From IMG/VR virus record IMGVR_UViG_3300045988_003481, positions 1 through 5,676 of that record: DNA of 5,676 bases. One strand, 5' to 3'. Of this stretch, positions 1,636-5,676 are shown piece after piece. How positions within the stretch are numbered: the first letter of the stretch is position 1; each line of letters begins with the position of its first letter. Under the pieces are notes generated by a model. That model was not told the DNA's origin. It did not search any database and saw only the letters and a list, made by a program, of their open reading frames with translations. This DNA comes from a virus. A program made the translations under genes and the position numbers.

Positions 1636-1660
1636 AAACCATTTCGCACAAGTGCCGCGA

Positions 1661-3319
1661 ATGGAAAGACCGCGAAGCAAATTTGACAGAAGTCACCAGC
1701 TGTTGACGACCATCAATGAAGGTGACCTCGTACCCATCTACTGTGATGAAGTGCTACCGGGCGATACCGCAAAAGTACACCTGAACGGACTCATTCGCAT
1801 GAGCACTCCCGTCTATCCTATCATGGATAACTGCTACATGGACACCTATTTCTTCTTTGTTCCATGCCGTCTGCTGTGGGAACACTGGGAGAACATGTTC
1901 GGCGAGAACGATACAAACTACTGGGCAGAAAAGACCGAGTACAGCACACCAACTACCGAAATCAAAAAAGCAGGCATTAAAGCCGGAACAATCGGAGATT
2001 ATTTCGGCTTACCGACAAACATACCGCTAAAAGTAAACGCACTCCCGGCACGCGCCTACGCAATGATTTATAATGAGTGGTTCAGGGATGAAAACCTTGA
2101 AGCACCTATAATGGTAGGATACAAGAAAACTGACGCAACGGGAAACTCTGAAGCCCCAGAAGTCGACGGGGCTAGCTACGCCAATAAACCAGAAATTACT
2201 GCGAAACTTTCAGAAGGTGCACTATACGCAACAAAACCGGCAAAGGCAGGAAAATTCCACGACTATTTCACCAGCTGTTTACCGAGTCCGTTGAAATCTG
2301 ACCCTGTAGAACTCAGCATGACAGGCAACGCACCTATCAGATTGGGAGACCAAAAAGGAAATTACCAAAATTTCAACGGGGCGGTAGAAATGGTAGTAGC
2401 CGCACATGGAAGCAACACAGCCGGGTCTCTGATATACGGGAATACCACCGGAGCACCCGGAGAAAAAAAGACGATGATGTTCAGCGGAACAGAAAAAACA
2501 AACAACGAGATTGGAACGGGTGGGTGGATGTATGCAGACCTAAGCGCTGTAAACGCAATCACCATTGCAGACTTGCGCATGAGCATAGCACTGCAGCACA
2601 TCTTTGAAGCAGATGCACGCAACGGCACGCGATACCGTGAGTTTCTGTCTGGTACGTGGGGCGTAACAAGTCCGGATAGCCGTCTGCAAATTCCTGAGTA
2701 CATCGGCGGACAGCGCATCGCAATCAATGTAAATCAGGTTGTTCAGACGAGCCAGACAGACCCGAAAACCGGGCAAGCACTGGGCAATACGGCAGCATAC
2801 AGCCTGACCACATGCAGCAAGCAGATGGTGGACTATGCAGCAACGGAATACGGCTATATCATCGGACTGGCAGTGGTACGAGTGGAACACAGCTACCAGC
2901 AGGGACTTGCAACCAAGTGGACACGTGGCGGACGGTTCACGTACTATGACCCGAGACTAGCAGCACTGGGCGAACAACCGGTGTACAACCGCGAAATCTA
3001 TGCACAGGGCAAAGATGAAGACAACGAAATCTTTGGGTATCAGGAATGCTGGGCGGACTACCGCTACAAGCCTTCCTACGTAACCGGAGAAATGCGGTCG
3101 AACTACCAGACAAGTTTGGACGCATGGCACTATGCAGACGATTATGACGCACTGCCGCGTCTCTCGGCAGAGTGGATCCAAGAGGGAACACAGAACATTG
3201 ACCGGACGATTGCGGTAACAAGCGAAAAAAGCCACCAGTTCTTGTGTGACTTCTATTTCAACGAAGAGTGGTATCGCGAAATGCCTATTTACAGCATTCC
3301 CGGCATCGAGAGAATCTAA
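1661..3319 (+). CDS. Major capsid protein VP1 (Microviridae F-protein family)
   Basis: It carries hallmark Microviridae capsid motifs: an N-terminal RSKFDRSHQ..TTINEGDLVPIYCDEVLPGDT, then HDYFTSCLP, then ITIADLRMSIALQ..EADARNGTRYREFL..WGV..DSRLQIPEYIGG. About 552 aa, typical of Gokushovirinae. I chose ATG 1661 (MERPRSKFD...); the track's GTG at 1652 is possible. Neither start has an SD. Confidence 0.95.
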   Translation: MERPRSKFDRSHQLLTTINEGDLVPIYCDEVLPGDTAKVHLNGLIRMSTPVYPIMDNCYMDTYFFFVPCRLLWEHWENMFGENDTNYWAEKTEYSTPTTEIKKAGIKAGTIGDYFGLPTNIPLKVNALPARAYAMIYNEWFRDENLEAPIMVGYKKTDATGNSEAPEVDGASYANKPEITAKLSEGALYATKPAKAGKFHDYFTSCLPSPLKSDPVELSMTGNAPIRLGDQKGNYQNFNGAVEMVVAAHGSNTAGSLIYGNTTGAPGEKKTMMFSGTEKTNNEIGTGGWMYADLSAVNAITIADLRMSIALQHIFEADARNGTRYREFLSGTWGVTSPDSRLQIPEYIGGQRIAINVNQVVQTSQTDPKTGQALGNTAAYSLTTCSKQMVDYAATEYGYIIGLAVVRVEHSYQQGLATKWTRGGRFTYYDPRLAALGEQPVYNREIYAQGKDEDNEIFGYQECWADYRYKPSYVTGEMRSNYQTSLDAWHYADDYDALPRLSAEWIQEGTQNIDRTIAVTSEKSHQFLCDFYFNEEWYREMPIYSIPGIERI

Positions 3320-3357: not shown

Positions 3358-4215
3358 ATGGAGACGTTATTAAAGCTTTTACCATCCCTCATGAAAGGAC
3401 TGAGCATGCTGACGGGCATCATCACAAGCAGTAACATGAGCAGCGCCAAGGATAGCCAAGCATCAGGCAGCGAGACCAGCACAGGCAGCGAGACTACAAC
3501 CGGCAGCGTGACAGCGCCGCAGCAAATCGGAACGGCGCAAATCGGCACGCCAACAGGTATTACCACATTCGGCAACCAGAGCAGCGTAAACACCGCAAAC
3601 GCACTGCAAATGATGAGCGGACTGCTGAGCAACCTCGCGAATGCTGGAAGCCAAGCAAGCGCCAAGAAGTACAACAGCGCGGAAGCAGCAGCAGAACGAG
3701 CGTTTCAAAAGGAAATGCGCGGGACAGCCTATCAGGACACCGTAAAGGACATGATAGCAGCGGGCATCAATCCTATTCTAGCAGCGACCAACGGCGCAAC
3801 AAGCGCACCATCGGGAGCATCTGCAAGCATTGGAAGCCAACATTATAACCAGCAGAGCGCACAGGCTGCAAGCGTATCCGCAATGTACGAATACGGCAAC
3901 AACACGGCAGAGCTGGCAGACAAATACTTACAGCTAGCAAAACAGGCAACCAGCGCAAAACAGCTTAAGAATGCGAAAAGCTGGGAACAGGCAGCAAGCG
4001 AGCTAGCAACCTCAAGCGCAAAACAGGCACAGCAATACAGCTATGCAGCTAACAAGTTAGGTGAAGGCCTTGCGGGAGCTGGCAAAGCAGCCAAAGACGC
4101 AGTAAAAAAGGCTGGTAAAGCAGCCAAAGACACAGCGGGAAACTTCAAAAAGTACAACCAAAGAGTGCCAATCATGCCAAACATGGACACATTCAACGCA
4201 TACACAGGAAACTAA
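3358..4215 (+). CDS. Minor capsid / DNA pilot protein VP2 (phiX174 H-like)
   Basis: It has the hallmark AERAFQKEMRGTAYQDTVKDMIAAGINPILAA block (aa 112-142, nt 3691-3783) that I recall as the conserved core of microvirus VP2 proteins. It also has a hydrophobic N-terminus, Q/A/S-rich low-complexity helical segments, and sits directly after VP1. An in-frame TGA at 3355-3357 excludes any upstream start. Confidence 0.9.
   Translation: METLLKLLPSLMKGLSMLTGIITSSNMSSAKDSQASGSETSTGSETTTGSVTAPQQIGTAQIGTPTGITTFGNQSSVNTANALQMMSGLLSNLANAGSQASAKKYNSAEAAAERAFQKEMRGTAYQDTVKDMIAAGINPILAATNGATSAPSGASASIGSQHYNQQSAQAASVSAMYEYGNNTAELADKYLQLAKQATSAKQLKNAKSWEQAASELATSSAKQAQQYSYAANKLGEGLAGAGKAAKDAVKKAGKAAKDTAGNFKKYNQRVPIMPNMDTFNAYTGN
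3466..3519 (+). repeat. 18-nt tandem repeat x3 inside VP2 (GSETST / GSETTT / GSVTAP)
   Basis: GGCAGCG recurs at 3466, 3484 and 3502. The units are ggcagcgagaccagcaca, ggcagcgagactacaacc and ggcagcgtgacagcgccg. Confidence 0.8.
3523..3552 (+). repeat. 15-nt tandem repeat x2 inside VP2 (QIGTA / QIGTP)
   Basis: caaatcggaacggcg (3523-3537) is followed directly by caaatcggcacgcca (3538-3552). Confidence 0.8.
4078..4136 (+). repeat. 33-nt-period duplication inside the VP2 C-terminus (AGKAAKDAV / AGKAAKDTA)
   Basis: gctggcaaagcagccaaagacgcagt (4078-4103) and gctggtaaagcagccaaagacacagc (4111-4136) match at 23 of 26 positions. Confidence 0.8.
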
Positions 4216-4221
4216 GGAAGG

Positions 4222-4252
4222 AAGGGGGATGACAAAACATCCCCCTTTTTTT
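4222..4252 (+). terminator. Strong rho-independent terminator after VP2
   Basis: AAGGGGGATG (4222-4231), ACAAAA loop, CATCCCCCTT (4238-4247) form a perfect 10-bp stem that runs into a T7 tract (4246-4252). It lies 7 nt after the VP2 stop codon. Confidence 0.8.
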
Positions 4253-4282
4253 AGTAACAATAATCCAAAAAATAGAGAATGT

Positions 4283-4299
4283 GGAAAACTTGAGTTTTC
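4283..4299. other. Perfect inverted repeat GAAAAC-TTGA-GTTTTC at the left edge of the repeat array
   Basis: GAAAAC (4283-4288) and GTTTTC (4294-4299) are reverse complements separated by a 5-nt spacer; one more A-T pair is possible if the loop shrinks. The right arm is the first 6 nt of iteron copy 1. The element overlaps AACTTGA (4287-4293) and, on the minus strand, TTTTCCACA (4280-4288). Confidence 0.6.
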
Positions 4300-4451
4300 A
4301 ACACTTTCAACAGGTTTTCAACAACAAGTTGCACAAAGAAATTCGTCAAAATGACGAACATTCAACAATTCAACAAGTTTTCAACAAAGTTTTCAACAGG
4401 CAAAAAGGCAATAAATAAACGTAGTAACGTTAAAAAAACGAGTTTTCAACA
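4294..4451 (+). repeat. Iteron-like array: 8 direct copies of TTCAACA (5 as perfect GTTTTCAACA)
   Basis: Perfect GTTTTCAACA occurs at 4294-4303, 4314-4323, 4377-4386, 4389-4398 and 4442-4451. The shorter core TTCAACA also occurs at 4306-4312, 4361-4367 and 4369-4375. All copies are in the same orientation. Within the two clusters the core-to-core spacing is 8-12 nt. I found no other TTCAACA in the window by eye. Confidence 0.9.
4342..4358. other. Perfect 7-bp hairpin between the two iteron clusters
   Basis: TTCGTCA (4342-4348), AAA loop, TGACGAA (4352-4358). The left iteron cluster ends at 4323 and the right cluster begins at 4361. Confidence 0.6.
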
Positions 4452-4460
4452 GTTTCCACG

Positions 4461-4473
4461 CTACTACTACTAC
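4461..4473. repeat. Short trinucleotide run (CTA)4
   Basis: ctactactactac, followed by the related gactac (4474-4479). It lies in non-coding DNA between the last iteron and the rep-proximal hairpin. Confidence 0.7.
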
Positions 4474-4512
4474 GACTACAACAAGTTAATATATAAAGAA
4501 AGCGAGGTGTCA

Positions 4513-4547
4513 ACCGGCACAAGATAGACAAGGAAGCTTGTGCCGGT
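4513..4547 (+). promoter_or_regulatory. Perfect 11-bp stem-loop immediately upstream of and overlapping the VP4 (rep) start region
   Basis: ACCGGCACAAG (4513-4523) pairs perfectly with CTTGTGCCGGT (4537-4547). The 13-nt loop ATAGACAAGGAAG (4524-4536) contains the only SD-like sequence for the rep gene (AAGGAAG, 4530-4536). The in-frame GTG 4540 is inside the 3' arm, and ATG 4555 is 7 nt past the stem. Confidence 0.7.
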
Positions 4548-4554
4548 AACAAAA

Positions 4555-5544
4555 ATGCCATGTACAAAACCATTAGTATTTCAGATGGACACGAAAAAAC
4601 CGCAGCTATGGGGAAGTCTGGAAAACCTATCAAAGCAAGGACTGCAAACGAACATCATGGAAGGAATCAAAAAAGGAAAATTCGCATTGTTACCATGCGG
4701 TAAGTGCGAATATTGTCGAAAACAGATGGCTGACCAATGGGCAACAAGAATAGAGCTAGAGGCCAAAGAGTGGGACGATGTGATTTTTCTAACACTGACG
4801 TATGACGATGAGCATGTTCCATACGGCGAAATCATCAAAGGCTACAGAAGCATACAAAGTCAGACAGTAAACAAACGGGACGTGCAGCTATTTTTAAAGC
4901 GACTAAGAAAAGCGTACAAGAAGCCAATAAAATACTTCCTAGCAGCTGAATACGGCGACAGAACAAAAAGACCTCACTATCACGCAATAGTATTCGGACT
5001 GAAACCACCGGATGCACAATGGTATAAAAACCAAAAAGGCAATAGCTATTTCAAAAGCGAATGGCTACAAAAAATCTGGGGCAAAGGCATGATAGACTTT
5101 TCACCAGCACAGCCGGGGAGCTTCGCATATGTAGCACAGTACGTCAACAAAAAAGCAATAGGTGCAGAGCAAGAGGCAAAATACTGGATGGAAGGTAGAG
5201 AACCTGAATTTAGAATCATGTCAAAAGGCATCGGCGAAAAGTATCTAAACGAACACAAAGATGAAATCTTGAAAACGGATAGCATCATATGCTCAGGAGG
5301 ACGCGAGAAAAGGCCTCCACGCTATTTTGATAAGATTCTAGATAAGGATACCAGCCAAGACACAGAAAGCTATTTTAGGGCACATTCTGACGAGCTGAGA
5401 GAGGTTAGAGCCAGACGGAGACGCAGTGCAATACAAAGTTTAATCAATCTCGAACAGAGCACGAGTGTAGATTATGAAACCTATCTCAACATTCAGAAAG
5501 AAAAGGACAAGCTAAGGCAAAAGTGGCGTGAACCAAAAGAATGA
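4555..5544 (+). CDS. Replication initiation protein VP4 (phiX174 A-like HUH rolling-circle endonuclease)
   Basis: It carries the three RCR motifs: I FLTLTY (nt 4786-4803), II PHYHAIVFG (HUH; HYHAIVFG at nt 4975-4998), and III YVAQYVNKK with two Tyr spaced by 3 residues (nt 5128-5154). It also has the CGKCEYC cysteine cluster and an MPC..P N-terminus typical of gokushovirus VP4. The start is ambiguous: ATG 4555 is preferred on N-terminal similarity, but GTG 4540 is 3-5 nt from the SD-like AAGGAAG. Confidence 0.93.
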   Translation: MPCTKPLVFQMDTKKPQLWGSLENLSKQGLQTNIMEGIKKGKFALLPCGKCEYCRKQMADQWATRIELEAKEWDDVIFLTLTYDDEHVPYGEIIKGYRSIQSQTVNKRDVQLFLKRLRKAYKKPIKYFLAAEYGDRTKRPHYHAIVFGLKPPDAQWYKNQKGNSYFKSEWLQKIWGKGMIDFSPAQPGSFAYVAQYVNKKAIGAEQEAKYWMEGREPEFRIMSKGIGEKYLNEHKDEILKTDSIICSGGREKRPPRYFDKILDKDTSQDTESYFRAHSDELREVRARRRRSAIQSLINLEQSTSVDYETYLNIQKEKDKLRQKWREPKE

Positions 5545-5577
5545 CGCGCACAGCGCTAAAAAGGAATGGATTAGCCG

Positions 5578-5676
5578 AGCTCCGCATACGCTACGCACGG
5601 CAAGGCGCTAAAGCGCCATTCAAAACAAAGGAGCAAAACCGACTGCTAATATATCAATTAAAATTTCAAAAAAAAC
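5578..5676. repeat. Terminal direct repeat, copy 2 (assembly overlap of a circular genome)
   Basis: Identical to positions 1-99. Confidence 0.97.

Follow-up and report, generated by a model that had tools for sequence, protein, structure and literature searches.

Between the genes for the pilot protein VP2 and the replication initiator VP4, the viral DNA record IMGVR_UViG_3300045988_003481 (5,676 nucleotides, analysed in full and called the window below) carries an element of about 200 nt, at window positions 4280-4497, that is built on a dense array of the repeat TTCAACA. The window is a gokushovirus genome, with the genes and open reading frames (ORFs) listed below. We believe that the array probably represents the DnaA boxes of a phage-borne copy of a bacterial chromosomal origin of the dnaA-dnaN type, and that this copy acts as an origin or unwinding site; the assignment is drawn from sequence comparison. 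The element has about ten boxes in three groups, nearly all of them facing the same direction; the last two boxes abut a run of DnaA-trios, which in turn is followed by an AT-rich stretch.

The TTCAACA array and its match to the basal unwinding system

The initial annotation of this region had described eight same-orientation copies of TTCAACA found nowhere else in the genome, five of them extended to a perfect 10-mer, with cores spaced by 8-12 nt within clusters. All of this was borne out. A search of both strands of the window finds TTCAACA on the plus strand only, at 4297, 4306, 4317, 4361, 4369, 4380, 4392 and 4445; shuffled sequence contains 1.04 copies on average and 4 at most, and none of 200 shuffles has eight. 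The 10-mer GTTTTCAACA occurs five times (4294, 4314, 4377, 4389 and 4442; 0.04 expected), and the start-to-start spacing of the boxes is 9 and 11 nt in one cluster and 8, 11 and 12 nt in the other. The perfect hairpin noted between the clusters is present, as are the DnaA box on the minus strand at 4280-4288 (TTTTCCACA) and GTTTCCACG at 4452-4460, and the motif is indeed translated in more than one frame by the small ORFs that cross the region (FQH/FQQ/VFN versus FST/FQQ). The array had been correctly recognised; its end had been placed too early, at 4460, since (CTA)n, CAACAAG and the AT-rich stretch are also parts of the unit, which ends near 4497. The parts of the element, with their conservation among related phages, are:

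4280-4288, minus strand: inverted DnaA box, TGTGGAAAA, which is TTTTCCACA on the minus strand and a perfect match to TTWTNCACA; found in some clades only, column conservation 0.50
4295-4323, plus strand: left box cluster, with a1 TTTTCAACA (4295-4303), a2 CTTTCAACA (4304-4312) and a3 TTTTCAACA (4315-4323); conservation 0.87-0.93
4324-4358: spacer 1, with a 7-bp hairpin TTCGTCA-AAA-TGACGAA at 4342-4358; conservation 0.69
4359-4398, plus strand: middle box cluster, with b1 CATTCAACA (4359-4367), b2 AATTCAACA (4367-4375), b3 TTTTCAACA (4378-4386) and b4 TTTTCAACA (4390-4398); conservation 0.90-0.95
4399-4442: spacer 2, with A-tracts and a small palindrome AACGT-AGTA-ACGTT (4419-4432); conservation 0.65
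4443-4460, plus strand: origin-proximal abutting boxes c1 TTTTCAACA (4443-4451) and c2 GTTTCCACG (4452-4460)
4461-4478, minus strand: DnaA-trios, reading CTA CTA CTA CTA CGA CTA on the plus strand and forming 3'-GAT-5' repeats on the minus strand; conservation 0.88
4479-4485, plus strand: CAACAAG, the most invariant block of the element; conservation 0.99
4486-4497: AT-rich stretch TTAATATATAAA, the presumed DNA unwinding element; conservation 0.73

The right-hand part of the element has the order of the basal unwinding system (BUS) of bacterial oriC. The BUS is defined by a DnaA box with at most two mismatches, an optional second box with at most four, a spacer of 0-16 bp and at least three DnaA-trios (3'-GAT-5'); the trios are often preceded by a GC cluster, and then there is an AT-rich element (PMC8287927). 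Window positions 4443-4497 read TTTTCAACA GTTTCCACG (CTA)4 CGA CTA CAACAAG TTAATATATAAA. Box c1 has two mismatches to TTATCCACA (the TTTTCCACA of relatives has one, and TTATCCACA itself occurs elsewhere in their arrays), and c2, which directly abuts c1, has three; the two are the counterparts of DnaA-box 6 and DnaA-box 7 in the Bacillus subtilis BUS. The first trio lies 9 bp from c1, a distance taken up by c2, and 0 bp from c2. In most relatives the junction is instead made of box, GCCC and trios, as in TTTTCAAC TTTTCCACA GCCC CTACTACTAC. The trios have the polarity seen in 104 of 105 bacterial loci near dnaA or dnaN among the matches listed (see below), and the AT-rich stretch holds the same position as in bacterial origins. 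Location is where the two part: the element sits between VP2 and VP4 of a phage genome, away from dnaA and dnaN, and is therefore a copy or a mimic, not a chromosomal oriC.

The trio-complementary strand also has a known ligand. The complement of the B. subtilis trios, 5'-CTACTATTACTTCTACTA-3', is at the same time a DnaD recognition element (DRE), and DnaD binds this strand as single-stranded DNA (PMC10201434). The C. difficile counterpart, 5'-CACCTACTACTATTACTACTATGA-3', is the same kind of (CTA)n run as that of the phage, and the plus strand of the phage element is a TnnT-repeat strand of the type recognised by DnaD in Firmicutes.

Conservation, position and orientation among gokushoviruses

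The nearest GenBank relatives of the window are human-gut gokushoviruses, at about 88-89% identity. When the intergenic region alone was used as a blastn query, it matched 49 GenBank gokushovirus records, most of them only over window 4296-4500 and at 72-80% nucleotide identity; in one relative, the intergenic element is the sole stretch that megablast detects. We assembled 169 distinct genome-size relatives by a pattern scan of IMG/VR together with a VP1-based search that does not depend on the element. The full-length element is found in 167 of them, including those picked only by VP1 similarity, and is absent from relatives in which VP1 identity is near 30%. In the larger clade, VP1 and VP4 are only 34-50% identical to the proteins of the window (VP4, 34-46%), and the non-coding element is thus much better conserved than the genes. 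The repeat is therefore not a peculiarity of one genome, as recent slippage would have it: Tandem Repeats Finder reports short local periodicities, but the array is collinear in 167 genomes.

Alignment of the relatives, proposed with the first description, shows that the motif is kept and the spacers drift: conservation is 0.87-0.95 for the boxes, 0.65-0.69 for the spacers and 0.99 for CAACAAG. This is a footprint pattern. Statistics of box variation were taken over the elements of 68 genomes, which have on average 4.9 boxes in forward and 0.6 in reverse orientation. Most of the variation falls on position 3 (T in 78%, A in 21%) and position 6 (A in 63%, C in 37%), and orthologous boxes alternate among TTTTCAACA, TTTTCCACA and the perfect DnaA box TTATCCACA; box a3, for instance, has the form TTTTCAACA in 31 genomes and the form TTTTCCACA in 27, and b3 is TTTTCAACA in 41 genomes and TTATCCACA in 16. 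At least one perfect TTWTNCACA is present in 56 of the 68 elements, and a perfect TTATCCACA in 16. From this toggling of orthologous boxes we conclude that the TTCAACA repeat is a variant of the DnaA box.

Several other kinds of conserved feature were considered and rejected. A small protein does not fit: the core is free of stop codons on the plus strand in only 5 of the 68 elements and on the minus strand in none, the lengths of indels do not keep to multiples of three, and no ORF is conserved across the elements. A search of the window against Rfam with E-values up to 1 gave only three chance-level eukaryotic matches. The hairpin between the clusters is not conserved as such: 32 of the 68 genomes have a perfectly paired stem of 6 bp or more in spacer 1, as compared to 4.6% of shuffles, and its sequence and register differ from genome to genome, leaving only a tendency toward some palindrome.

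The position of the element is best described with reference to the genes of the window:

147-548: M15-type peptidase
969-1223: small DNA-binding protein
1210-1635: scaffold-like ORF
1652-3319: major capsid protein VP1
3358-4215: pilot protein VP2
4540-5544: replication initiator VP4 (HUH Rep)

In the clade of the window (48 genomes), the order is VP2, the element in gene orientation, and VP4. In 117 genomes the element lies directly 3' of VP4 and is inverted, as the deposited annotation of KT264798 confirms, and in L099, MG945447, MG945867 and the partial genome L011 it lies 3' of VP4 in gene orientation. The VP2-VP4 intergenic location originally given for the array thus holds for the window clade and is clade-specific, with other placements elsewhere. 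In one genome, L433 (IMGVR_UViG_3300045988_015275), VP1 is 79% identical to that of the window and the element nonetheless has the placement of the distant clade, inverted and 3' of VP4, which points to an exchange between clades by recombination near VP4 and the element. The AT and GC skews of VP1 and VP4 at 4-fold sites are equal in both orientation classes; the flip of the packaged strand that would be expected if the element held the nick site of Rep has left no sign.

These arrangements bear directly on one of the two functions first suggested for the repeats, namely that they bind the phage initiator and either define the rolling-circle origin or autoregulate rep. The suggestion draws on the direct repeats and adjacent AT-rich stretch upstream of VP4 in the window clade, on the 99% conservation of CAACAAG, and on a likeness, which we take to be a vague one, of CAACAAG/TTATATA to CAACTTG/ATATTAATAAC of phiX. 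Against it, the boxes stay unchanged across VP4 proteins that are only 34-46% identical; the element is upstream of VP4 in 48 genomes and downstream and inverted in 117, with no flip of strand skew; bacterial chromosomes, which have no VP4, share the boxes and their general layout, down to a CTACAACAAG block 3' of the trios in bacterial locus L391; and the phiX174-type origin (a site of about 30 bp, CAACTTGATATTAATAAC...) has no match within three mismatches on either strand. Two positions, both orientations and unchanged boxes across divergent Reps make a Rep iteron array, or a nick site that determines the strand, unlikely, and we find binding of VP4 to these repeats hardly credible; a host factor acting on double-stranded DNA fits the variable position and orientation better. 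The label 'iteron-like' is still apt as a description, though not as a statement of family membership.

Transcriptional control is a second possibility affected by position. DnaA is also a transcription factor, and either DnaA or some other host regulator (a response regulator, or one of the Spo0A type with its 0A box TTCGNCA) might couple phage expression to the state of the host; TTCAACA is one mismatch away from the complement of the 0A box, and the element is located upstream of VP4 in the window clade. Across the arrangements, however, there is no consistent relation of the element to any gene start, the trios and the AT-rich element would be superfluous for regulation, and A in place of the G of the 0A box is dominant at that box position. 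No sigma-70 promoter was found in 4150-4650, and the sole flagged 'terminator' there is the hairpin at 4341-4359, on the minus strand. We regard this explanation as very improbable.

The element might also be an origin of the complementary strand on the packaged single strand, priming the conversion of single-stranded DNA into the replicative form. Either the (CTA)n TnnT strand would recruit DnaD directly, or a DnaA box made duplex by a hairpin would nucleate a primosome of the ABC type, for which A sites are established. The predicted single-strand fold of the window does pair 4280-4292 with 4374-4386 into such a duplex box, and binding of DnaD to the single-stranded trio complement (PMC10201434) is compatible with the former variant. 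Yet 117 of 167 genomes have the element reversed with respect to the genes and show no change in strand skew, so that different clades would present different strands; moreover, most clades lack the inverted box on which the hairpin depends (conservation 0.50, with 0.6 reverse boxes per genome). Strand-specific functions have a better candidate in an orientation-fixed structured element 3' of VP4, described next, and we consider a complementary-strand origin in the array to be quite unlikely.

This second conserved non-coding element occupies window 5545-5676, continuing into 100-146, directly 3' of the VP4 stop codon, and contains CGCGCACAGCGC ... GCCGAGCTCCGCATACGCTACGCACGGC ... GGCGCTAAAGCGCC. 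It is matched by 95 related viral contigs, most of them 85-95% identical, and is 99.4% identical in KX513868, in which the genes have diverged widely. Its orientation, in contrast to that of the oriC-like element, follows the genes in 94 of 94 genomes scored. It forms three hairpins, with compensatory changes at 6 of 17 pairs and a single unpaired cell, and is a candidate strand-specific cis element: the nick origin of VP4, a complementary-strand origin or an RNA structure. Between VP4 and the oriC-like element, many relatives have long GC-rich tracts of alternating purines and pyrimidines (GCGCGTGCGCGC...; for example, L001 1585-1619, L006 3326-3369 and L099 1489-1511), which are prone to form Z-DNA or cruciforms; such tracts adjoin VP4 regardless of the direction of the oriC-like element, and there are none in the window.

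Some further properties of the window may be mentioned here. Its positions 1-99 are identical to 5578-5676 (about 99 nt), i.e., the window is a circular genome with a terminal overlap from assembly, and its true length is about 5577 nt. The coding strand is strongly A-rich and T-poor in the window and in all related genomes, with AT skew of about +0.26 to +0.38 over the whole sequence and of about +0.5 when only 4-fold sites are counted; the coding, packaged strand of phiX174 is, on the contrary, T-rich. Directly 3' of the VP2 stop codon, at 4222-4253, there is a GC-rich 10-bp hairpin (AAGGGGGATG / CATCCCCCTT) with a T-run, which resembles an intrinsic terminator; a consensus scan gave no flag for 4222-4253. 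At 4513-4547, shortly 5' of the VP4 ATG at 4556, 11 bp pair perfectly as a stem (ACCGGCACAAG / CTTGTGCCGGT) around a loop of 13 nt; in KT264784 and KX513864 this stem is altered on both sides and the loop ATAGACAAG.AAG is retained.

Counterparts in bacterial origins and the likely hosts

The junction signature of most relatives, TTTTCCACA-N2-6-CTACTACTAC, was scanned in one genome per species for 185,579 species, giving at least 120 listed loci, on large bacterial contigs from many phyla. Its typical context in bacteria comprises a further box, a GC cluster, additional CTA repeats and then an AT-rich run. Of the 120 loci listed, 105 lie within 1.5 kb of dnaA and/or dnaN, and in 104 of these, among the matches listed, the same strand has dnaA on the side of the boxes and/or dnaN on that of the trios; no phage (prophage) copy was seen among the at least 120 bacterial loci listed. 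The same signature is found in 99 stretches of 2.9 million viral contigs, about 90 of which are 4-6 kb contigs of this gokushovirus group.

Two of the 120 listed loci, L164 (Ruminococcus sp. RGIG7051, rumen) and L228 (uncultured Ruminococcaceae UMGS1750, human gut), have many TTCAACA/TGTTGAA boxes 5' of the BUS, and according to Pfam searches both regions are flanked by DnaA and DnaN. TTCAACA boxes also appear in the profile alignment of L189, a metagenome-assembled genome (MAG) of Eubacteriales. We further retrieved 80 metagenomic dnaA loci with the DnaA protein of L228 as query, i.e., independently of the DNA motif, and the closest relatives among them use TTCAACA boxes.

The likeness extends well beyond individual boxes. 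A profile made of the phage core aligns, in nhmmer searches, over nearly its full length with L328 (E = 4.5e-18), L189 (2.4e-14), L164 (3.3e-12) and L326/L228 (about 1e-11), as compared to a best E-value of 0.2 in a reversed-database control. In the DnaA-selected loci, 28 of 30 significant matches are inside the mapped dnaA-dnaN spacer and on the dnaA strand; the other two are just 3' of dnaA, in loci in which DnaN was not detected. The dnaA-dnaN BUS of L326/L228 (Ruminococcaceae), TTCAACTTTTCCACAGCCCCTACTACTAC, has 29 nt identical to the phage consensus, and that of L328 reads GTTTTCAACTTTTCAACAGCCCCTACTAC. The layout of the phage middle cluster, with two abutting boxes, AAGTT and TTCAACA, recurs in L326 and L349 as TTCAACATTCAACAcaaagttTTCAACA; inverted TGTGGAAAA boxes are found inside the arrays of L328, L326 and L352; and a palindrome, TCGCA-TTT-TGCGA, is aligned with spacer 1 in L189. 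Even the invariant block has bacterial counterparts: CAACAAG follows the trios in the origins L391 (CTACAACAAGTT) and L133 (CTACAACAATAAATATA), the CTACAACAAGTT that is present 3' of the trios in L391 being the phage-invariant sequence. The second early suggestion, that the repeats are sites of the host DnaA type, thus receives strong support, as they belong to a complete oriC-type module that is collinear with dnaA-dnaN origins of gut Clostridia.

Chromosomal origins of Ruminococcaceae-type Clostridia of the gut and rumen use the box variant with A at position 6, and these bacteria are for this reason the likeliest hosts, as predicted from the box sequences and the best profile matches. We considered residues of DnaA domain IV as the cause of the preference for A, and found only a correlation with lineage (DHSTIVYA/DHSTVVYA), which is uninformative.

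A BUS-like motif, TTTTCCACAGACCCTACTACTAC, with more boxes upstream, was observed in viral contigs of 17-23 kb (L250, at 9330-9352, L257 and L321), with no dnaA or dnaN nearby; an identical sequence is present in the Prevotella MAG contig L152/L185. Other phages or phage-plasmids may have DnaA-trio origins as well.

Proposed function and relation to known origins

In the model that we favour, i.e., a phage-borne host-type origin, the DnaA of the host would occupy the boxes on the double-stranded replicative form, and ATP-DnaA would then oligomerise from c1 and c2 onto the trio strand, melting TTAATATATAAA. The displaced (CTA)n strand would recruit the host loader (DnaD/DnaB/DnaI in Firmicutes), by which the replicative helicase would be loaded. 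The outcome would be a start of phage DNA synthesis that depends on the host initiator, or else opening of the duplex. What the sequences show is the layout of the element, its conservation and its collinearity with real origins; the binding of DnaA, the unwinding and any benefit of these to the phage are inferred here.

Several observations weigh against this model or against the host assigned with it. Most boxes have A at position 6, where the consensus of the E. coli type requires C, and the affinity for DnaA is accordingly judged from bacterial origins that have the same variant. Where a GC cluster would precede the trios, the window offers no more than the G that ends c2 (GCCC, ACCC or the like is present in most relatives), and its AT-rich stretch, at 12 nt, is shorter than the bacterial examples. 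The equal skews in the two orientation classes could also come from coding constraints. We know of no need for DnaA in a rolling-circle phage with its own HUH Rep, and a search of the literature gave no precedent in Microviridae and no link between Microviridae and DnaA boxes. As for the host, the prediction is based on the taxonomy of MAGs and on loci fetched through one DnaA family, and box usage differs even among close bacterial relatives. In addition, the nearest non-microvirus homologues of the M15 peptidase are endolysins of Vibrio, Escherichia, Klebsiella and Proteus phages, a relationship to phages of Gram-negative hosts that would mildly contradict a Ruminococcaceae host.

The same clusters of boxes could, alternatively, serve as a sponge. 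Multicopy replicative forms with about ten boxes each would titrate the DnaA of the host and shut down or deregulate chromosome initiation, freeing the replisome and nucleotides for the phage, and unwinding would be incidental. DnaA-box regions of B. subtilis (incA/B/C) placed on plasmids do inhibit chromosomal initiation, and E. coli datA titrates DnaA; indifference to orientation would also be expected of a sponge. Boxes alone would suffice for titration, however, yet conservation is among the highest in the element (0.88-0.99) at the trios, at CAACAAG and where the boxes join the trios, and the exact geometry and polarity of the BUS are retained, which suggests that opening matters. We therefore hold titration as the main function to be unlikely.

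A stronger form of the origin model is that the copy of the host origin is a working one, by which the replicative form is started or kept as a plasmid-like episome by host DnaA and the helicase loader, independently of Rep, in monoderm Ruminococcaceae-type Clostridia. We put this forward tentatively, as a possibility that is open to considerable doubt. If this is true, these gokushoviruses would be the first single-stranded DNA phages with an origin of the chromosomal type (theta, DnaA-trio); the long persistence of gut Microviridae would gain a mechanism, and a group without a cultured host could be assigned one. To our knowledge, no gokushovirus origin has been mapped so far, and no hosts are known for the gut gokushoviruses, which are very common. 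A complete module of DnaA boxes and DnaA-trios in a rolling-circle phage would mean that the phage either also uses the host initiator or manipulates it, and the box variant, together with the collinearity with Ruminococcaceae origins, makes for a concrete host prediction. The element would also be a naturally minimised oriC of about 200 bp, available in more than 160 variants and in both orientations, and useful for finding the origin features that DnaA needs.

Among known systems, iteron origins of plasmids and phage-plasmids (pSC101, R6K, RK2, P1 oriR) share with the proposed phage origin direct repeats beside an AT-rich region and the use of host DnaA. Their iterons, however, are 17-22 bp long and bound by a plasmid-encoded winged-helix Rep, whereas the repeat unit in the phage is a 9-bp DnaA box and the window encodes no winged-helix Rep. 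The iterons of CRESS-DNA viruses and geminiviruses, and the 30-bp origin of phiX174, likewise belong to viruses with HUH Reps and combine short repeats or an AT-rich nick region; in the gokushoviruses there is no nonanucleotide stem-loop, the boxes do not co-vary with Rep, the position and orientation of the element are independent of VP4, and the sequence of the hairpin at 4342-4358 is not conserved. DnaA-titrating clusters, such as E. coli datA and the B. subtilis inc regions on plasmids, resemble the phage element as dense DnaA boxes outside the chromosome origin, and differ from it in lacking a conserved trio and unwinding module.

Much closer are the dnaA-dnaN origins of the Ruminococcaceae type (L328, L326/L228, L164 and L189), which have the same TTCAACA variant and collinear left and middle clusters; they differ in having more reverse boxes and longer, different spacers, and the phage elements are tighter (about 200 nt) and have a phage-specific, near-invariant CTACAACAAGTTA. 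With the bacterial BUS in general, as known from B. subtilis incC and C. difficile oriC2 (Richardson 2016/2019; Pelliciari 2021), the phage element has in common two abutting boxes, (CTA)n on the box strand, an AT-rich run, the same polarity (104 bacterial examples listed) and upstream arrays of boxes in the same direction. It departs from that pattern in being located in a 5.6-kb single-stranded DNA phage, away from dnaA and dnaN, with a short AT-rich part, no clear GC cluster in the window and mostly A6 boxes. A DnaA-dependent origin module is thus of a well-known kind; what appears to be new, as none was found in the literature searched, is its presence in Microviridae as a conserved, compact and invertible cassette.

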